A stretch of DNA of 64,000 nt from an uncultured Alphaproteobacteria bacterium (GTDB taxonomy: Bacteria > Pseudomonadota > Alphaproteobacteria > Rs-D84): the NCBI GenBank assembly GCA_905233975.1, contig CAJOGD010000001.1:162635-226634 (forward strand), in the 5' to 3' direction. This document shows, piece by piece, positions 2,088-61,557 of the stretch. Position 1 is the first letter of the stretch, and every line of letters starts with the position of its first letter. A program made the translations under genes and the position numbers. The notes under the pieces were generated by a model. It ran no database searches. It was not told the origin of the DNA and saw nothing but the letters and a program-made list of their open reading frames with translations.

Positions 2088-4394
2088 ATGAAATGGACAT
2101 TTGATTGGTTAAAAGATTATTTGAAAACAGATTTATCCGCCGCGGAAATTGCGGATAAACTAACGCACATTGGGTTAGAGGTCGAAGATTTATCTGCGCC
2201 GGTGCCCCCGATCGCGGCAAAAATCGTTGAATGCCGGCCCCATGAAAACAGCGACCACCTGCATGTTTTAAAGGTCGATGACGGCGGCGCCGATTTGCGC
2301 CAGGTTGTATGCGGTGCCCCCAACGTTCGTGTTGGCATGATTTCTGCGCTTGCGCGGCCGGGTTGCGTTATCCAAGGGCACGAAATACAAAGTGGCAAAC
2401 TGCGTGGCGTTGTTTCCGACGGTATGATGTGCAGTGGTGAAGAATTGGGCATAAATGACGACGACACCGGCATTATTGAATTGCCCGATGACACACAAAT
2501 AGGCACGCCCGTTGTCGATTGCCCAACGGTCTTTGACGCGGGTATCACACCGAACAGACCGGATTATTTGGCGGTGCGTGGTGTTGCACGTGATTTGTCG
2601 GCGGCGGGCGCGGGCGAATATATTGAACCGAACGATGACAAATTCATGGTATCTGGCGCGGTGCGCGGTGTAAAACTAAATACAGATAAATGTCGCGCGT
2701 ATAAACTTGCGGAAATTCATGACATAAAAATGGCGCCAAGTTCGGCAAAAATCGCGTCGCGTCTGCACGCAATCGGCATAAACCCAAAGAACGCGCCAAT
2801 CGACGCAACAAATTATATTTGCTATGACATGGCGCAACCGATGCACTGTTTTGACGCGGACGAAATCGTTGGCGATATTACTGTGCGCATGGCGAACAAT
2901 GGCGAAGAATTTACCGACCTGTTCGGAAATAAACATGAACTAAAAGAAAACGATATTGTTGTTGCCGATGACGCGGGTGTTCTTGCGCTGGCCGGTGTGG
3001 TTGGTGGCGCGCGCGGTATGACAAGTGATAACACAAAAAATATCATACTGGAAAGTGCGTATTTTGATCCGGTGTGCATTCGTAAAACATCAAAGCGTCT
3101 TGGTATATCAACCGATGCTTCGTATCGCTATGAACGCGGAATTGACCCAACAATAACCGGACGGGCATTAATGGCGACCGTAAAGATTATTACCGACGCG
3201 TGTGGTGGTAAAATCGCTGGCTTTGCGGCGGCGGGAACGGACGCACCGATAAATCCGGAAATCGAATTTTCACCGGCGGTTTTTGTGCAAAAAACGGGTG
3301 TTGAAATGCCGGCGGACGAGATGAAGACTATTTTAACAAAACTTGGCTATACGGGGGATTTCGGCGGTGTGCCATGGAAAGTGACCGCGCCAAGTATGCG
3401 CGTTGATGTCCAAATTCCGGAAACGATTGTCGCGGATTTAATTCGTATCTATGGATATGACAAGGTCGGTTTGAATTATACGCCTGAAAAAATAGTTCCG
3501 GCGGAACATAACGATTTGGATATTCCGTTAAAAGAAAAATTGGCGGCCCGCGGATTGAACGAGGCGATTACTTTCGGTTTTGGCAATTCCGAAATTGAAA
3601 AGATTTTGACCGATAAACCAAGTATCATGGTTGCAAATCCGATTGTCGTGGATATGGATACGGCGCGCAACGGATTGCTTGGGAATCTTTTGGTTGCCGT
3701 CGCGAACAATGAAAAGCGCGGATATCCCGATTTGAATCTATTTGAAATGGGAACGGTGTTTGATGGCGACATGCCCGGCGAACAGCATACCGAAATCACA
3801 ATTGTTCGCACCGGCGCAACATCGCCGAAACATTGGCAGAAACGCAACCGCGACGTCGATATATATGATGTTAAGGCGGATATTGTTTCGCTGTTAAACG
3901 GCCAGAATTTTACAATATCAACGGAAAATCCGCCGCTTTGGGCGCACCCGTATCGCTATGGTGCGATTACCCAGGGTAATAAAAAACTTGGCGAATTTGG
4001 CGAATTGCATCCGTCGGTTGCGCGTAAATTAAAGATAAAAACCAAGGTGGTTATCGGCATCGTTGGCAATATAAATAACCTGCCCCGTCGGGTTTTGCCA
4101 CGTGGCCCAATCGCGATGAGTGATTTTCAACCAATAACGCGCGACTTTGCATTCGTTGTGCCGTCTGATTTTCCGGCGGACCGGTTGGTTGCGGCGGCGC
4201 GCTATGCCACGAATCCGATATCGGGTGCGGTTGTGTTCGATTCGTTTGAAATGGGTGATGGTAAAAAGTCCGTTGCGTTCACGATTACGTTCACGCCACG
4301 CGAAAAAATGTCGGAATCCGACTTGGCAAAACTGCATGCCGATATAATCGCGGCGGTTGAAAAGAAATGCCCCGCGCACGTTCGGGACAAGTAA
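2088..4394 (+). CDS. pheT: Phenylalanine--tRNA ligase beta subunit
   Basis: The 768-aa product has a tRNA-binding N-terminal domain followed by B3/4 and FDX-ACB-like regions. It lies immediately after pheS. Confidence 0.9.
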   Translation: MKWTFDWLKDYLKTDLSAAEIADKLTHIGLEVEDLSAPVPPIAAKIVECRPHENSDHLHVLKVDDGGADLRQVVCGAPNVRVGMISALARPGCVIQGHEIQSGKLRGVVSDGMMCSGEELGINDDDTGIIELPDDTQIGTPVVDCPTVFDAGITPNRPDYLAVRGVARDLSAAGAGEYIEPNDDKFMVSGAVRGVKLNTDKCRAYKLAEIHDIKMAPSSAKIASRLHAIGINPKNAPIDATNYICYDMAQPMHCFDADEIVGDITVRMANNGEEFTDLFGNKHELKENDIVVADDAGVLALAGVVGGARGMTSDNTKNIILESAYFDPVCIRKTSKRLGISTDASYRYERGIDPTITGRALMATVKIITDACGGKIAGFAAAGTDAPINPEIEFSPAVFVQKTGVEMPADEMKTILTKLGYTGDFGGVPWKVTAPSMRVDVQIPETIVADLIRIYGYDKVGLNYTPEKIVPAEHNDLDIPLKEKLAARGLNEAITFGFGNSEIEKILTDKPSIMVANPIVVDMDTARNGLLGNLLVAVANNEKRGYPDLNLFEMGTVFDGDMPGEQHTEITIVRTGATSPKHWQKRNRDVDIYDVKADIVSLLNGQNFTISTENPPLWAHPYRYGAITQGNKKLGEFGELHPSVARKLKIKTKVVIGIVGNINNLPRRVLPRGPIAMSDFQPITRDFAFVVPSDFPADRLVAAARYATNPISGAVVFDSFEMGDGKKSVAFTITFTPREKMSESDLAKLHADIIAAVEKKCPAHVRDK

Positions 4395-18941: not shown

Positions 18942-20060
18942 TTATTGTTCCTGGGGGATGTAAAGATTTGCGTTTATTTCCGGCCCCGCCCGAAACGTTC
19001 CCGATCCAGACGCTTTGAAATCGCGGCCGATTGTGTCATACATTCCAACATCGTTCCCATGTCTTGCCGGCACAAGGTTTTGAATAAGTTCCCCATTTCT
19101 GTACACCTTATAACTTTTAATGCTGCCGTTAAAATAATACCCGTAAGATCCGCCATAATACCGCGCAAACAAATAATTGTTTGCTGTATTTGTAAATGAA
19201 AACGGTGTGAAATTAACGGTGTTATTATCTATGCTAAGACGTCCCGATACAAAATCGTGAACAATTTTATGCCAATTTGTATCCACAGGTATATTGGTGT
19301 TGACTTTGGTGTTTGTTGAATCATAGGCGTAATATGTTTGATATGCATAAAACGCGCTGCTTTCCCCGGTTTCGTACACCCCATATATGGCACCATATCC
19401 TGTCGCAGAAGAATTTTTAAATTCCGTTTCAACGACATCTGTCCCGGCAAGTTTTATTTCTGTATCAATCCATTGTGTGCCGTCGGATTCAATCCATTCC
19501 AATGGTGTGTAACCGGTCGGTAAAAGTGTGTTATCCGTCGTTGGATTATGTATCGAATAAACCCAACAAAGGTCTGTATCGGGTTTAAATTCCTTACATT
19601 TAAATTCGTTATCAAGTCCGGTCTTTAATGCCGCATTAAATGTTTTCGCATCGATAAGGTTGTCCGCTTGTTCGGTGTATGTGCCGGTGGCCTGATAAAT
19701 CCCCTTTTGCCCTATTCCGCCCGGCTGTCCGGTATATGTGACGGCGGTGTGGTCGTTGACGGCGGCGATGTCGTCTTGTTTCTGATTTAATTTTGTATTA
19801 ACGCCACCAACCATGGGAAGTGATGTGTCGGTTGTGTCGCTGCCCAAATCGGATTTAACTGTGCGTTTCTGCACCGTTCCGGCCGAATCGGTGTATTCCA
19901 TGGCTTTATTCGTGTCCACGCCAAATTTGTTTTGTCGCGTACTAAGTTCATGTTCGACATATTTTAATGACGTCGCGGTTTTCCGGTCCGCCGCTTCTTC
20001 GGCAAACGCTGGCAGTACCGCCGCAATCAACCCGAACAATAAAAACTTTTTTAAATGCAT
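18942..20060 (-). CDS. Secreted variable-family protein, paralog 1 (conserved N-terminal domain, unique C-terminal domain, ends YIPQEQ)
   Basis: Sec signal MHLKKFLLFGLIAAVLPAFA|EE. About 170 aa are nearly identical to the ORFs at 38121, 45432 and 58487. SD 'aagggagag'. Confidence 0.8.
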   Translation of the reverse strand: MHLKKFLLFGLIAAVLPAFAEEAADRKTATSLKYVEHELSTRQNKFGVDTNKAMEYTDSAGTVQKRTVKSDLGSDTTDTSLPMVGGVNTKLNQKQDDIAAVNDHTAVTYTGQPGGIGQKGIYQATGTYTEQADNLIDAKTFNAALKTGLDNEFKCKEFKPDTDLCWVYSIHNPTTDNTLLPTGYTPLEWIESDGTQWIDTEIKLAGTDVVETEFKNSSATGYGAIYGVYETGESSAFYAYQTYYAYDSTNTKVNTNIPVDTNWHKIVHDFVSGRLSIDNNTVNFTPFSFTNTANNYLFARYYGGSYGYYFNGSIKSYKVYRNGELIQNLVPARHGNDVGMYDTIGRDFKASGSGTFRAGPEINANLYIPQEQ

Positions 20061-20456
20061 ATCGCTCTCCCTTTTTCGTTTTAATAACCACTAAAACAAA
20101 CACCGCAATGGAAACCAAGCGGTCGGGGTGTTAGCGTATCACTCAAAACCAAATGATTGTCGACTTTTGGCAAAGCCTGTTGTATAACCGACGCACCCCG
20201 AACCTTTTTATTCGGGGAAAACATAACGATGCAAAATTACAGAAAATTGTCGGATTACGATGTATTCTAATAATTCTGCACCGGGTTTGATAGAGCACGC
20301 TAATGCCCCGAACCAGATTCCCATCTAGTTCAACGCTATTCTATCAGAACACACCAAAACGGGTCAAGGATTTTTTAGTGGTATTTTGCAAACGGGCCGT
20401 CGGGACCGGCTTACTTTTCACTTTTCTTTTATATTTTTTACTATTATAATGCGGGC
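20061..20456 (-). promoter_or_regulatory. Type-A conserved 5' leader: extended -10 box plus a structured ~270-nt 5' UTR
   Basis: Box cTGATAGAATAG (rc of 20336-20347). It shares long blocks (gatgggaatctggttcg, catcgtaatcc, caccccgaccgcttggtttccattgcgg) with the leader at 46398-46800. It has the hairpin ccccgaataaaaggttcgggg. Confidence 0.55.
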
Positions 20457-37847: not shown

Positions 37848-38126
37848 GTGGCGAGTGTTAGTGCTAGTGATTGGTGCGCGGGGCAACAAAGCCCCGCTTT
37901 TTTATTTCCGTCATATCGCGCTATCGGGCCCCGCAAAAAATGCCGTCATACCGCTGTAAAGCGGTATCTCGTCGGAACCGTCGCGGGGTAATTCTCAGAA
38001 AAGCCTAAGGAGATACCGCGTCAGGCGCGGTATGACGGCTTGAAATCACCCACAAAAAACGCTATGCGTTTTTTGCGGGGGCCGATACCGCGGGGTGACG
38101 TCACTAATACTTCCCACTAATTATTG
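37848..38126. mobile_element. MITE-like composite repeat (~280 bp). TTAGTG-type terminal arms enclose nested palindromes.
   Basis: Left arm gtggcgagtgttagtgctagtgattggtg. Right arm gtcactaatacttcccactaattattg. Internal: gcggggcaacaaagccccgctttttt (the accC terminator), gtcataccgctgtaaagcggtat, ataccgcgtcaggcgcggtatgacgg and cccacaaaaaacg..cgttttttgcggggg. Confidence 0.6.
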
Positions 38127-39128
38127 ATTCTGGGGGATATAAATTGTTTCTCCGTTCCAATCTTCTTCCACCGGCGTGGCAAGTGGATAATACACCGTCA
38201 CCGGTGTTCCTGCGGCGTATTGCCCGGCAAGATAGGCTTCAAAATCGGCAATTGTTGGATAATTAACACGCGACACATTCACCGTAAATGAACCAACACC
38301 ATCTATACGGGCATAGCGCAAAGCCGACGTTATTGCATCTGCGTTATACTGGTAATTTCCCTGTCTTGGAAAGTTTGAATAATAACCACTAGTTGCCCAA
38401 TTTAACCACTCTTCTGTTCCGTCCAAAACCTTTACCCCAACGCGTCGTGTGATTTTGTGGGTTGTGGCGTCGTATGAATCGGCATAGTCGCCAACGCGAC
38501 GCAGAATTAGGTTATCTTGTTGATAAAAAACGGGATAAATCGGATTTTCTGGCGTCGGTGTGCCGTCTTGTGTGACGGTGCCGGTCGCCGAAACGTATTC
38601 GGTGTTATTATGTATCGTATAGAGCCAACAAAGGTTGGACACCGGATCGCGGTTATCTTCCCTACATACAAATTCACTATCAAGACCATTCTTTAATGCC
38701 GCGTTGAACGTTTTGGCGTCAATCAGGTTGTCGGATTGGGTGGCATACGATTCGCTTGTTTGATAAATTCCTTTCCGCCCTATTCCACCCGGTTGGCCTG
38801 TATATGTGACGGCGGTGTGATCGTTAACCGGGCCAATGTCATCTTGCTTTTGATTTAATTTTGTATTCACACCACCAACCATGGGCAGTGATGTGTCGGA
38901 CGTATCGCTACCCAAATCGGATTTAACTGTGCGTTTCTGCACATCGCCGGCCGAATTAGTGTATTCCATGGCCTTGTCCGCTTCCGCGGTAAATTTATTT
39001 TGTCGTGTACTAAGTTCATGTTCGACATATTTTAATGACGTCGCCGTCTTGCGGTCCGCGGCTTCTTCCGCCACCGCCGGCAACACCGCCGCAATTAATC
39101 CGAACAACAAAAACTTTTTCAAAAACAT
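38121..39128 (-). CDS. Secreted variable-family protein, paralog 2 (ends YIPQNQ)
   Basis: Start set at MFLKKFLLFGLIAAVLPAVA (SD 'aaggggagg'). The N-terminal 170 aa are conserved. The C-terminus is unique. Confidence 0.8.
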   Translation of the reverse strand: MFLKKFLLFGLIAAVLPAVAEEAADRKTATSLKYVEHELSTRQNKFTAEADKAMEYTNSAGDVQKRTVKSDLGSDTSDTSLPMVGGVNTKLNQKQDDIGPVNDHTAVTYTGQPGGIGRKGIYQTSESYATQSDNLIDAKTFNAALKNGLDSEFVCREDNRDPVSNLCWLYTIHNNTEYVSATGTVTQDGTPTPENPIYPVFYQQDNLILRRVGDYADSYDATTHKITRRVGVKVLDGTEEWLNWATSGYYSNFPRQGNYQYNADAITSALRYARIDGVGSFTVNVSRVNYPTIADFEAYLAGQYAAGTPVTVYYPLATPVEEDWNGETIYIPQNQ

Positions 39129-39385
39129 TTTCCTCCCCTTTGTTCTTTGCACTAACACTAAGTAAAAAACCACAGAAAACGTGTGGTTGGAGGTTAACGA
39201 CTATAATGTTCGGAAAATAGTGGGCTTATTCGATATATTCACCGCCCTCCAACCAAATTAGGTTGGAGGTGTTTTATGTCCCCGCGGACACCGAACATTA
39301 TAAAGGGTCGTTACACCACATCGGCGGAACACCCACCGACAGACCTATTCTATCAAAAAACGGAAATAAAAAACAAGAGAAAAAA
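39129..39385 (-). promoter_or_regulatory. Type-B conserved 5' leader: extended -10 box, a conserved hairpin, and a terminator-like hairpin 35 nt before the start codon
   Basis: Box TTTTGATAGAATAG (rc of 39346-39357). Hairpin cctccaacc-N7-ggttggagg (39245-39269). Hairpin aaccacag-aaaacg-tgtggtt plus a U-run (39163-39189). About 200 nt are almost identical to 58157-58320. Confidence 0.6.
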
Positions 39386-39538
39386 GTGGTTAGTGTTAGT
39401 GATTAGTGTAAGTGGTTTGTGTTCCGCCTTCGCTGTCGCTGCGCCGCGACTGCGCCAGGGTTTCGCCCCGGCTTGGTGTAAAAGAAACGGGCGCAAATGC
39501 GCCCGCACTAATCACTTACACTAACACTTTTCACTATC
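39386..39538. mobile_element. MITE-like repeat with TTAGTG or CACTAA inverted arms (~150 bp)
   Basis: Left arm gtggttagtgttagtgattagtgtaagtggtttgtg. Right arm cactaatcacttacactaacacttttcactatcc. GC-rich palindromes lie inside. Confidence 0.6.
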
Positions 39539-45431: not shown

Positions 45432-46397
45432 TTATTGGTTTTGCGGGATATACACGTTTTTGTATGGTTCGTATTCTGTAATAACGTCACCTTGTTCCAA
45501 CTGCAAACCGTTCGCAAGTTGTATAAGCTGGTTTTGTGAAAATGAACCGAAACTTGAAATATTTATATATGCCGCATTATCTTGGAAAGTCCAACGCCTG
45601 CCTAGCCATATATGGTCGTTATTGGCACTGGTGGTATGCGCTGAAATTATCCGACCGTTTGCATCATAAACATATAAATTAAACTGTGTTGTAATATTAC
45701 AATTGGTAGAACCATTATAACTCAATATATACGTTTCACCGCCAATAATCGGAATAGGTGAACCGTTTGCCAATTTACCAGCGTTAGGTGCTTGGGTCGT
45801 ATACGTGGCGCCCCCATAGCTAGCCCAATCATTAAAACCAATATTGTTTTTATTAAATAAATTTTTGGTGTGTTCTTCGGTTGGGTTGTGTATCGAATAC
45901 ACCCAACAAAGGTCTGTTCCGGGTTTAAATTCCTTACATTTGAATTCTCTATCAAGTCCCTTCTTTAATGCGGCGTTAAAGGTTTTGGCGTCGATTAAAT
46001 TATCCGATTGTTCGGCGTATGTGCCGGTTGTCTGATAAATTCCTTTCTGCCCTATTCCGCCGGAATCACCGGTATATGTGACGGCGGTATGGTCGTTCAC
46101 CGCGGCGATGTCGTCCTGTTTTGTATCAAGTTTTGTATTCACGCCACCAACCATAGGCAGTGAATCTGTCCCGCCATTATCTAAATCCGATGTGACCGCA
46201 CGTTTTTGCACCGTTCCGGCCGCATTAGTATATTCCATCGCCTTGTTTGCTTCCGCGGTAAATTTATTTTGACGTGTATCAAGTTCATGTTCGACATAGT
46301 TAAGTGACGTTGCTGTTTTGCGGTCCGCGGCTTCCTCCGCCACCGCCGGCAATATTGCCGCCATCAACCCGAACAACAAAAACTTTTTCAACTGCAT
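45432..46397 (-). CDS. Secreted variable-family protein, paralog 3 (ends YIPQNQ)
   Basis: Start at MQLKKFLLFGLMAAILPAVA (SD 'aaggaga'). The N-terminus is conserved. The unique C-terminus contains a QLEQGDVITEYEPY jelly-roll-like terminal strand. Confidence 0.8.
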   Translation of the reverse strand: MQLKKFLLFGLMAAILPAVAEEAADRKTATSLNYVEHELDTRQNKFTAEANKAMEYTNAAGTVQKRAVTSDLDNGGTDSLPMVGGVNTKLDTKQDDIAAVNDHTAVTYTGDSGGIGQKGIYQTTGTYAEQSDNLIDAKTFNAALKKGLDREFKCKEFKPGTDLCWVYSIHNPTEEHTKNLFNKNNIGFNDWASYGGATYTTQAPNAGKLANGSPIPIIGGETYILSYNGSTNCNITTQFNLYVYDANGRIISAHTTSANNDHIWLGRRWTFQDNAAYINISSFGSFSQNQLIQLANGLQLEQGDVITEYEPYKNVYIPQNQ

Positions 46398-46800
46398 ATC
46401 GCTCTCCTTTTCTTTTTTCCCCGTCATCCCGCGCTTGACGCGGGATCTCCCCGTTATTGTCGCGGTTTTGCCCCTCGACGGCTCCGACGGGATTCCGGCT
46501 TTCGCCGGAATGACGGCTTTATGTAAGTCTCACTAGCCACTAACACTTACACCAAAATAAGTGCCGCAATGGAAACCAAGCGGTCGGGGTGTTCGAAAAT
46601 CATTTATGTCATTGATTCCCATGGCCTTTTGCAAAAGCATTATAGCCATAGGCACCCCAACATTGGGGTAAAATCTATAACGGTGCAAAACACGAATGGA
46701 GATTACGTGGATTACGATGCTTTGCACCGGACATAAACAGGCTTTCGACAGCCACGAACCAGATTCCCATCTGACTCACATTCATTATATCAAAAACCTT
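46398..46800 (-). promoter_or_regulatory. Type-A conserved 5' leader (second copy) with an upstream palindromic repeat module
   Basis: Box TGATATAAT (rc of ~46784-46793), a perfect extended -10. The covarying hairpin ccccaatgttgggg stands in for ccccgaataaaaggttcgggg of copy 1. It shares caccccgaccgcttggtttccattgcgg. Confidence 0.55.
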
Positions 46801-46817
46801 GGAAATGCGTCAAGACG

Positions 46818-57989: not shown

Positions 57990-58010
57990 AAATATCAAAA
58001 AACCCGGGAA

Positions 58011-58126
58011 GTGCAGTGTAAGTGTTAGTGGTTAGTGATAGTGACGTCATACCGCCCTTCGGCGGTATGACGCGGTTCAGGCAGAACTTACACTAATTAC
58101 TAATACTAATCACTAACACTAACCAC
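58011..58126. mobile_element. MITE-like element (~116 bp). TTAGTG and CACTAA inverted terminal arms surround a perfect hairpin.
   Basis: Left arm gtgcagtgtaagtgttagtggttagtgatagtg. Central hairpin acgtcataccgcccttcggcggtatgacg. Right arm ttacactaattactaatactaatcactaacactaaccac. Confidence 0.65.
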
Positions 58127-58130
58127 TTTT

Positions 58131-58486
58131 TTCACTTGTTTTTTGTTTCTGTTTTTTGATAGAATAGGGGTGTCGGTGGGTGTTCCGCCGGCGGGGTGTC
58201 AAGACCCTTGGGTTCCGGGTGTCCGCGGGGACATAAAATACCTCCAACCAAAAAGTGGTTGGAGGGCGGTGAATATATCGAATAAGCCCACTATTTTCTC
58301 GGAACATAGTCTTGAACCTCCAACCACTAGAAGATTTTCGGTGGTTTCGTTTATTTGTGTGCAAATAAACGAAACAGCAGAGAACCGTCATTCCGGCGAA
58401 TCCGCCGCGGATTGGGTCTCTGCAACACTTAGGAGATACCGCGTCAAGCGCGGTATGACGAGAAAAAAGGAAACAAGGGGAGAAAA
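58131..58486 (+). promoter_or_regulatory. Type-B conserved 5' leader (second copy): extended -10 box plus a ~310-nt structured 5' UTR
   Basis: Box TTTTGATAGAATAG (58157-58168). Hairpin cctccaacc-aaaaagt-ggttggagg (58241-58265). Terminator-like hairpin aaccac..gtggtt plus a U-rich run (58311-58345). Palindromes ccgtcattccggcgaa.. and gagataccgcgtcaagcgcggtatgacg come before SD 'aaggggag'. Confidence 0.6.
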
Positions 58487-59437
58487 ATGCAATTGAAAAA
58501 GTTTTTGATGTTCGGGTTGATGGCGGCGGTGTTGCCGGCGGTGGCGGAAGAGGCCGCAGACCGGAAAACGGCGACGTCATTAAAATACGTCGAACATGAA
58601 CTTGATACGCGTCAGAATAAATTTACCGCGGAACAAAACAAAGCCATGGAATACACCGATTCGGCCGGCGTGGTGCAAAAACGTGCCGTCACGTCGGACC
58701 TGGATAATGGTGGAACCGATTCGTTGCCCATGGTTGGTGGTGTGAATACAAAACTAAACCAAAAACAGGACGACATCGCCGCGGTCAACGACCATACCGC
58801 CGTCACATATACCGGGCAGCCCGGCGGAATAGGGCGGAAAGGAATATATCAGGCCACCGAATCGTATGCCAACCAATCTGATAACCTTATCGACGCCAAA
58901 ACGTTCAACGCGGCACTTAAAAACGGACTTGATAGCGAATTTAAATGCAGGGAAGATAACCGCGATCCAGTGTCCGGACTTTGTTGGCTCTATACGATAC
59001 ATAACACCAGTCCGAATTTGTTTGATAAAAATAATTTAACACGCATATATGGTTATTTCCCATCTAGCGGTTCAGATTGGACGTATGTAACCGCAGGATA
59101 TTCAATAAGAATACCATGTCAGCCAAGCACAACATATACGGCGCGTTATAATGGCAATAGTTCCCAAGTTGTATTATCCTTTGCGTCCACAGGCAGTGAT
59201 GAAATACCATTGGGTGGATCGCGTGTTGCATGCACTAACAGTATTCGGCAAAACAACCCAACAATCGATACGCCAATAACATTCACTACTGGTCCAAATG
59301 ACAAATGGCTAATTGTTCAATACAATGTTAACGAACCACAAAATACCGACATGGCAAACAATCTACAGGTTGAAATTGGTTCAACCGCAACACCGTACGT
59401 TCCATACGGCAGCGTTTACATTCCACAGAACCAATAA
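58487..59437 (+). CDS. Secreted variable-family protein, paralog 4 (ends YIPQNQ)
   Basis: MQLKKFLMFGLMAAVLPAVA signal. The N-terminus is a mosaic of paralogs 2 and 3. The unique C-terminus carries LQVEIGSTATPYVPY, a jelly-roll-like terminal strand. Confidence 0.8.
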   Translation: MQLKKFLMFGLMAAVLPAVAEEAADRKTATSLKYVEHELDTRQNKFTAEQNKAMEYTDSAGVVQKRAVTSDLDNGGTDSLPMVGGVNTKLNQKQDDIAAVNDHTAVTYTGQPGGIGRKGIYQATESYANQSDNLIDAKTFNAALKNGLDSEFKCREDNRDPVSGLCWLYTIHNTSPNLFDKNNLTRIYGYFPSSGSDWTYVTAGYSIRIPCQPSTTYTARYNGNSSQVVLSFASTGSDEIPLGGSRVACTNSIRQNNPTIDTPITFTTGPNDKWLIVQYNVNEPQNTDMANNLQVEIGSTATPYVPYGSVYIPQNQ

Positions 59438-60063: not shown

Positions 60064-60147
60064 GAAAATACTCCCTTGAGTTTATGTTGCTCATGTTATA
60101 GTGTATATTAAAGTTTTGATAAAATCAAGACAAAAGGAATATATTCG

Positions 60148-61489: not shown

Positions 61490-61557
61490 AAAAATCCGCC
61501 GTCTGGCGGATTTTTTAGCGGTTAGTGTAAGTGTTAGTGGTTAATGCGGGCGCGGTC

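Follow-up and report, generated by a model that had tools for sequence, protein, structure and literature searches.

A structured leader RNA ahead of a secreted-protein gene family in an uncultured alphaproteobacterium and its possible role in transcription attenuation

What precedes the secreted-protein genes in a 64,000-nucleotide (nt) stretch of contig CAJOGD010000001.1, from an uncultured Alphaproteobacteria bacterium? In this stretch (hereafter, the window), the interval 58131-58486 lies upstream of one such gene, 58487-59437 (+), and an initial annotation described it as a conserved, structured 5′ leader of the riboswitch or attenuator kind. Comparison with further copies leaves us nearly certain that the interval contains a real structured RNA, which is undescribed in Rfam 15. 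Regarding its function, sequence features make it moderately probable that the leader, as a member of an undescribed RNA family, acts in cis to attenuate transcription in a riboswitch-like or protein-dependent manner.

Loci of the gene family (numbered with L below) were gathered from JGI metagenomes, GTDB genomes and ENA contigs, amounting to about 620 kb in total, and 20 distinct type-A and 8 distinct type-B leader sequences were aligned. Both types share an architecture in which a 5′ hairpin (P1) is followed by an interrupted helix of about 20 base pairs (bp; P2) that closes a four-way junction with P3, P4 and P5, and a terminator hairpin comes directly after it; the structured RNA is ~185-235 nt long. 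The initial division into two leader classes is thus kept for the sequences and given up for the architecture, of which there is one. The leader at 58 kb is of type B, and its parts, with the gene that it precedes, are as follows.

58131-58167 (+): promoter section of the flagged interval
58136-58165 (+): type-B promoter, with a weak -35 box TTGTTT (58136-58141), an 18-nt spacer, TG (58157-58158) and TAGAAT (58160-58165)
58168-58356 (+): conserved structured RNA with terminator
58172-58192 (+): P1 hairpin GUCGGUGG / CCGCCGGC at the predicted transcript 5′ end, from the minimum-free-energy fold
58193-58219 (+): P2 5′ strand, with P2a GGGGU, P2b UCAAGAC and P2c GUUCCGGG
58220-58233 (+): P3 hairpin UGUCC-GCGG-GGACA
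58241-58265 (+): P4 hairpin CCUCCAACC(A)-loop-(U)GGUUGGAGG
58266-58292 (+): P5 element with conserved GAAUA...AAUAAG, from alignment and consensus fold; its apical hairpin is absent in this copy
58298-58320 (+): P2 3′ strand, with CUCGGAAC, GUCUUGA and ACCUC, pairing with 58193-58219
58317-58325 (+): second CCUCCAACC, spanning the P2 end and the start of the terminator stem, complementary to the P4 3′ arm at 58257-58265
58322-58346 (+): terminator-like hairpin AACCACU...GGUGGUU, from folding, with an interrupted U-run UUUCGUUUAUUU through 58356
58348-58470 (+): filler of ~125 nt between terminator and Shine-Dalgarno (SD) sequence, outside the conserved RNA
58348-58371 (+): small palindrome within the filler
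58386-58462 (+): dispersed repeats within the filler, resembling repetitive extragenic palindromic (REP) elements and also found elsewhere in the window
58475-58482 (+): SD sequence AAGGGGAG before the gene
58487-59437 (+): family gene, from tblastn, encoding a signal peptide, a conserved N-terminal region of ~175 amino acids (aa), a variable C-terminal beta-sandwich and a C-terminal YIPQNQ

The initial annotation took the whole interval 58131-58486 as leader; 58168-58356 is conserved and structured, and 58348-58470 turned out to be repeat filler. The 58-kb copy folds with a minimum free energy of -75.3 kcal/mol (z = -4.2), and its opposite strand is nearly equal (z = -4.1), so folding energy picks no strand, which is decided by G-U pairs and gene linkage. 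When folded singly, all eight type-B sequences give the same layout of P1, P2, four-way junction and terminator. The dominant feature is the long-range helix P2, not noticed in the initial annotation, rather than the local hairpins. The hairpin that had been quoted, CCTCCAACC-N7-GGTTGGAGG, is located at 58241-58265, and the quoted compensatory change, CCCCAATGTTGGGG versus CCCCGAATAAAAAGGTTCGGGG, is likewise present; the two quotations describe one helix, P4, as it appears in type B and in type A. The P4 arms are invariant in seven of the eight type-B copies. P3 differs between copies, with UGUCGAA/UUCGACA or GGUCC/GGACC at the same place, and the apical hairpins of P5 are variable in L047, L056, L072, L073 and L074.

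The strongest support for this structure comes from covariation, which was found in both types (31 of the 57 type-A pairs and six type-B P2 arm pairs, detailed below), as the reading in the initial annotation had presupposed. RNAalifold analysis of 15 type-A copies gave a 9-bp P1 with a GGGA loop and a long interrupted P2 with P3, P4 and P5 inside it, where GGGG/UGAGAAG/... just past P1 pairs with .../UUUCUCA/CCCC ~190 nt downstream, and compensatory changes occurred at 25 of 47 pairs. When the junction fold with terminator (57 pairs) was scored on 20 type-A copies, 91.9% of cells were paired, compared with 38-49% after sliding the partners by 1-3 columns, and the double-sided changes amounted to 159 cells. 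The covariation score was 0.422, against 0.06-0.12 for slid partners and 0.205±0.010 for shuffled controls, none of the 500 shuffles reaching 0.422. In P2, double changes affect 12 of 16 inner pairs, several of which take three or four pair types. The numerous G-U pairs, such as 40:225 (G-U in 19 of 20 copies) and 169:203 (U-G or G-U in 13), fit only the gene-sense strand and thereby support it.

For type B, the MAFFT alignment of eight sequences revealed that 94.7% of cells are paired (34-53% with slid partners) and that six pairs are altered on both sides. P1 is 96% paired with two pairs altered on both sides, and P2b covaries between UCAAGAC/GUCUUGA and UAACGAC/GUCGUUA. The inner P2 (P2c) was too variable for MAFFT, and its arms, which lie ~80-120 nt apart, were compared separately. 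Among seven copies compared, six different complementary arm pairs were found, namely GUUCCG / CGGAAC, UAUAAUGUUCGG / CCGAACAUUAUA, UUUGACGA / UCGUCAAA, UUUAAGGA / UCCUUAAA, UCAUAGGU / ACCUAUGA and UUCAGUCU / AGACUGAA; the mean duplex energy is -10.6 kcal/mol for matched arms and -2.5 for mismatched ones. These arm pairs are the clearest evidence for the type-B structure. Two open reading frames (ORFs) that cross the 58-kb leader and overlap the structured RNA, 58143-58496 (+) and 58119-58580 (-), are regarded as spurious because the copies differ in compensatory changes of paired bases and in indels whose lengths are not divisible by three.

The family itself is smaller in the window than first counted, since a tblastn search with the product of 58487-59437 gives four paralogous genes, not five. 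The three other genes and their leader units, all on the reverse strand, are as follows.

39128-38121 (-): family gene, from tblastn, with its real start at ATG 39128
39158-39389 (-): second type-B unit, with the -10 box within 39358-39345, structured RNA, terminator at 39188-39168 and gene start at 39128
46397-45432 (-): family gene, from tblastn
46551-46813 (-): type-A unit, with promoter at 46813-46784, structured RNA at 46782-46551 and gene start at 46397
46813-46784 (-): type-A promoter TTGACG-18-TATAAT with TG, from promoter scan
20060-18942 (-): family gene, from tblastn
20090-20367 (-): type-A unit, with promoter at 20367-20338, structured RNA at 20335-20090 and gene start at 20060, ~30 nt past the terminator
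20367-20338 (-): type-A promoter TTGACC-18-TAGAAT with TG, from promoter scan

The two type-B leaders, said initially to share ~200 nt, are 83% identical over 279 nt (58090-58360 and 39422-39155), and the relation claimed for the two type-A leaders is borne out, as 46782-46551 (-) and 20335-20090 (-) match one profile. Beyond these four leaders, no more copies of either class were found in the window. Profile searches of the gathered loci located type-A or type-B leaders before 38 family genes (orthologous duplicates counted), and in all 38 pairs the leader lies on the strand of the gene and ends 23-227 nt before the start codon. A single further leader copy sits at the very end of its locus and is cut off there. 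The linkage to the family is therefore exclusive: structured RNA occurs only before family genes, and not as a dispersed element of the REP kind or a miniature inverted-repeat transposable element (MITE).

Each unit begins with a promoter. In the window, TTTTGATAnAATAG has four matches with at most one mismatch (0.25 expected), being exact at 58154 (+) and 39358 (-) and carrying one mismatch at 20349 (-); the remaining match, at 3328, falls within an ORF. The motif takes the form TTTTGATATAATGA at 46795 (-), ahead of the 46-kb gene, so that all four family genes are preceded by a version of it. The promoter motif noted initially before every cassette gene is thus present at all four, although it is not specific to the family: its core TTYTGATAnAAT also occurs away from family genes, at 60114 (+), 28306 (-) and 13538 (-), and is therefore the general extended -10 promoter of this genome. 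The promoter layout of the 58-kb copy is repeated in all type-B copies. A consensus promoter scan misses the 58-kb promoter, whose -35 box matches at 3 of 6 positions, and type-B promoters escape the scan because of this poorer -35 box (TTGTTT or TTGATT). The structured RNA begins right after the promoter. Directly 5′ of the 46-kb type-A promoter, at 46841-46822 (-), lies a strong terminator (AACGGCGCGTATGCGCCGTT and a T-run), which shields the leader unit from the sspB-like gene before it.

Each unit also ends with a terminator-like hairpin, and the stem with U-run upstream of the SD sequence, as initially described, was found in all four window copies. The hairpin follows the P2 3′ strand after one or two nucleotides. 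The terminator helix is 100% paired in the type-B alignment, with one compensatory pair, and 87% paired in type A, with three. A terminator scan calls the 39-kb copy at 39188-39168.

This combination of parts led us to compare the leader with known RNA families. A scan of the whole window with Rfam 15 at gathering thresholds returned three tRNAs only, and permissive scans of both leader types yielded nothing above 23.6 bits, in agreement with the initial failure to place the leader in a known riboswitch class. The families c-di-GMP-I, c-di-GMP-II, T-box, cobalamin, SAM-I and yybP-ykoY gave no match at E<=10 (200-570 nt, lax filters), and a literature search found no description of a motif of this kind. 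A single Rfam family, sRNA-Xcc1 (RF02221), weakly matches the two classes at corresponding positions (58257-58333 and 46661-46575), with 23.6 bits for type B and 20.1 for type A against a gathering score of 53. All that aligns is a closing stem of a common kind around two inner hairpins, which in the model mimics the alternative (antiterminator) fold of the leader described below, and the likeness is one of shape, with no sequence motif in common. Between the two classes, nhmmer profiles gave no cross-matches even at E<=10. A type-B covariance model scores all nine type-B copies at 113-232 bits (175.9 bits on 39158-39349) and type-A leaders at 15.5 bits at best (E 0.04), with one full-length match of 12.1 bits. 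Common descent of the two classes is plausible from the shared layout. As A and B share the architecture and not the junction sequences, they could answer to different signals.

Terminator-coupled four-way junctions are known from riboswitches such as SAM-I (RF00162), cobalamin (RF00174), yybP-ykoY/Mn2+ (RF00080) and NiCo (RF02683). Like the leader, these are sense-strand 5′ leaders with a closing helix, conserved unpaired junction nucleotides, peripheral hairpins of variable length and an intrinsic terminator directly after the closing helix. The leader differs from them in having no sequence or covariance-model similarity, an unusually long closing helix (~20 bp, interrupted) and an extra 5′ hairpin, P1, outside the junction, and its genes encode secreted lectin-like proteins instead of metabolic or transport functions. 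Riboswitches of the c-di-GMP-I class (GEMM, RF01051) occur in many copies per genome, often before genes for adhesins, pili and surface proteins. The leader resembles them in being present in many copies per genome, each before a gene for a surface or secreted protein, which points to a global signal and not to the metabolite of a pathway; GEMM-I is otherwise built of two hairpins joined by a tetraloop-receptor contact, unlike the leader. A protein-dependent precedent is LoaP acting on the dfn leader of Bacillus velezensis, where the protein acts on a leader structure and an intrinsic terminator and all determinants reside in the leader (PMC12691694). The two systems have in common a long 5′ leader with a specific RNA structure and an intrinsic terminator whose read-through decides expression, as proposed here; however, the LoaP element is a small UNCG hairpin in Bacillota, and the leader is a 190-nt junction domain in Alphaproteobacteria.

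The leader displays two features that characterize riboswitches and attenuators, namely a structured domain supported by compensatory changes and a sense-strand 5′ position consistently before genes. In the proposed mechanism, each family gene would be transcribed from its own extended -10 promoter, and the first 185-235 nt of the transcript would fold into P1 and then into P2 closing the junction of P3, P4 and P5. Transcription would end at a short hairpin, rich in G+C and followed by a U-run, that comes one or two nucleotides past P2 and leaves 23-227 nt to the start codon. Since the shortest copies have only ~23-50 nt from terminator to start and no room for a second promoter, their genes would be expressed only by read-through of the terminator. 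The junction fold with terminator is the predicted ground state by folding energy, and the default state would be OFF. A possible antiterminator is provided by a sequence duplication: the P4 3′ arm (GGUUGGAGG in type B, (U/G)UCGGGGUG in type A) can pair either with its own 5′ arm or with a duplicate of that arm, which is the second CCUCCAACC, invariant in all eight type-B copies, and CACCCCGA(C) in type A, lying across the P2/terminator boundary as in type B. Pairing of the P4 3′ arm with the duplicate, over the P2 end and the terminator start, would abolish the terminator. An effector bound at the junction, either a small molecule (riboswitch) or a protein (antiterminator), may shift the balance between the two folds.

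The folding results bear on this proposal in several ways. The consensus fold of 20 type-A sequences picks the alternative fold and that of 15 sequences the junction fold, which indicates that the two compete. Type A contains further competing helices, in which CGGUG pairs with CAUCG or with a distal UGCACCG, and both options covary. A second candidate antiterminator, a duplex between the P1 5′ arm and the terminator 5′ half, beats shuffles in L052a, L013, L073b and L010; in the window copies and most type-B copies it does no better than shuffles. A kissing loop between the P1 and terminator loops was considered and rejected, because pairing (UGG/CCA or GUGG/CCAC) also occurs within the terminator "loop", which explains the apparent covariation.

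Several points weigh against the attenuation reading. The alternative helix, paired in all 20 type-A copies, has six of eight pairs that never vary and two with one-sided changes, so that covariation gives no verdict on the antiterminator either way. Forcing this helix on single sequences costs 7.5-21 kcal/mol relative to the minimum free energy (11.5 in the 58-kb copy), and a strong effector or a kinetic route would be needed. A simple terminator scan does not call the 58-kb hairpin, on account of its interrupted U-run UUUCGUUUAUUU and of an inner loop whose length exceeds what the scan allows. All copies stem from paralogs and a few closely related genomes, so independent evolutionary events are fewer than the cell counts. 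Only one gene family is associated with the leader and gives no metabolic clue to a ligand, and we infer the transcription start site, termination, read-through control, effector and switch direction from the sequence. Of the riboswitch or attenuator reading given in the initial annotation, the structured sense-strand RNA, the promoter, the terminator-like hairpin, the gene linkage and the lack of an Rfam match thus stand, and the switch itself is a proposal.

These features might instead belong, as the initial annotation also considered, to a stand-alone small RNA of ~190-230 nt, with its own promoter and terminator, that acts in trans or binds a protein while the gene is expressed by leaky read-through or otherwise. 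The unit is indeed complete with promoter and terminator and is highly structured, and many copies are set apart from the gene by 100-227 nt of unrelated repeat filler. Nevertheless, the RNA was not seen away from a family gene, and its strand is always that of the gene; several copies with 23-50 nt between terminator and start contain no promoter-like site, so the gene depends on the leader promoter, and dozens of divergent copies per genome would be unusual for a trans-acting RNA. We consider the small-RNA explanation unlikely. Comparably improbable, in our estimation, is a constitutive 5′ untranslated region serving mRNA stability, processing, translation or secretion targeting, in which the hairpin is a weak pause site or leaky terminator and no switch exists. 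The far greater stability of the ground-state fold, the alternative helix without covariation and the imperfect U-runs of some copies would fit such a region; however, a four-way junction with conserved unpaired nucleotides and an adjacent terminator exceeds known stabilizing 5′ stem-loops, and it would be left unexplained why both classes keep an exact second copy of the P4 arm over the boundary of P2 and terminator. Finally, that the leader has no RNA function and owes the similarity of its copies to recent duplication, to gene conversion or to a mobile promoter cassette that travels with the paralogs and may belong to the MITE-like repeats, is very improbable: paralogs do exchange segments, as in the L051 mosaic described below, and TAGTG-rich repeats do flank the leaders, yet drift in one strand of a helix is matched by compensating change in the other, over distances of up to 190 nt, the slid-partner controls, which keep relatedness, drop to background, broken P2 pairs occur only in the mosaic contig, and the repeats vary in presence and position where the RNA does not.

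If the leader is the regulated attenuator favoured here, it would represent a new class of structured RNA, large enough (a four-way junction of ~190-230 nt) for a specific binding pocket, and an entire multigene family of secreted, glycan-binding-like proteins in an uncultured lineage of the gut or rumen would be under its control. The leader would also join the short list of orphan riboswitch or antiterminator targets that govern cell-surface variation and not metabolism. The many natural copies are ample material for covariation analysis, and at this length the RNA lends itself to biochemistry without culture.

Sister lineages offer a natural comparison, as the same gene family is found under the RNA leader in one lineage and apparently under DNA inversion in others. 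In sister-lineage tandems of short and long family genes, the RNA leader is replaced by a ~120-bp segment between inverted repeats AAAAAACCAAGGTTTTT / AAAAACCTTGGTTTTT, seen at L008:2540-2900 and L020:2600-2950 and also in L012, L017 and L023; it looks like an invertible promoter, and in L020 it is reversed relative to L008 and L017. L013, which belongs to the same subfamily as these loci, carries a type-A leader instead. Invertible promoters (invertons) control surface-protein families, for example in Bacteroides. Invertons and leader occupy the same position before the same protein family, and both would switch individual paralogs on or off; the inverton switch operates at the DNA level and needs a recombinase, whereas the leader is an RNA structure without a promoter bounded by inverted repeats. 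This suggests that individual family members are switched, by DNA inversion in some lineages and, more speculatively, by the RNA leader here. A bolder extension, which we regard as doubtful, is that the leader is an RNA on/off switch for variegated or signal-dependent expression of lectin-like surface proteins that plays the part of the invertons of the sister lineages, with A and B sensing two effectors through a new four-way-junction aptamer fold. In more distant relatives (L004:2500-2990, L026:1-250, L027:2500-2990 and L024:2600-3000), two palindromic boxes lie 110-130 bp apart upstream of the gene, with the sequence GGACATAAACGAACGTTTATGTCC, or TACCACAAACGAACGTTTTTGGTA in L024, and could be operators or another inversion system.

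A signal peptide and a conserved N-terminal stretch of ~175 aa are common to the four family proteins; the C-terminal parts are mutually unrelated, yet all finish in YIPQ(N/E)Q. Pfam and PHROGs searches with the four proteins gave no significant match. An AlphaFold model is confident for the C-terminal domain only (predicted local distance difference test, pLDDT, above 90), the conserved N-terminal half being poorly modelled. The C-terminal domain (residues ~180-316, DNA 59020-59437) is modelled as a beta-sandwich, whose best PDB matches are carbohydrate-binding modules (CBM) of the CBM16/CBM6 type and a phage tailspike domain (weak, E ~1e-3), weakly suggesting that the proteins are lectin-like or glycan-binding-like. 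A GTG-started ORF of 350 aa, 38121-39173 (-), is an artefact that over-extends the 39-kb gene beyond ATG 39128.

Database searches found 190 relatives of the family protein, many of them paralogs on the same few long metagenomic contigs. The named relatives are from rumen metagenome-assembled genomes (MAGs) labelled Alphaproteobacteria or uncultured proteobacterium, the JGI matches are metagenomic too, and the host lineage is probably a rumen alphaproteobacterium. A scan of GTDB genome contigs returned only distant family relatives, mostly cut at contig ends. Most of the GTDB MAG contigs L036-L046 start within the conserved N-terminal part of a family gene, which indicates that assemblies break at the repeated gene start and leader and that reference MAGs therefore under-count both the family and its leaders. 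Viral contigs contained no relatives of the family protein, and the 15 stretches in them with the P4 palindrome pattern gave no match to either leader profile at E<=1e-3. In L056:1-9650, a family gene with a type-B leader lies directly 3′ of phage capsid, terminase, portal and Bbp19-like genes, suggesting a prophage context for this copy. The type-A leader at L051:199-428 is a mosaic, with a 5′ half like L052:2770 and a 3′ half identical to the 46-kb copy of the window; this 3.7-kb contig holds the only type-A sequence with several broken P2 pairs and has arisen either by chimeric assembly or by recent recombination.

The surroundings of the leader are rich in repeats. The 39-kb type-B copy lacks the filler seen at 58 kb, and other copies have other repeats in its place. 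In the orthologous locus of a related strain (L001), where a ParB gene, the leader and the family gene follow one another, the sequence is near-identical through the structured part and differs 3′ of it, where REP-like repeats are inserted. REP-like palindromes (CGTCATTCCGG..., CGCGTCAAGCGCG) occur in the window at 58386-58462, 46420-46520, 38005-38037, 30860 and 50876; as such repeats often lie between the leader terminator and the SD sequence, they would be transcribed on read-through. The leader is also more than a part of a MITE, in line with the initial annotation, since the MITE-like repeat next to it is a separate element with the RNA outside.

58010-58128: MITE-like TAGTG-rich inverted repeat, upstream of the promoter and outside the RNA

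Similar TAGTG/TAAGTG inverted repeats lie at 39400-39530, 46530-46560, 61524-61546 and 12458, and in many copies TAGTG/TAAGTG runs stand directly after the leader terminators and directly before the leader promoters.

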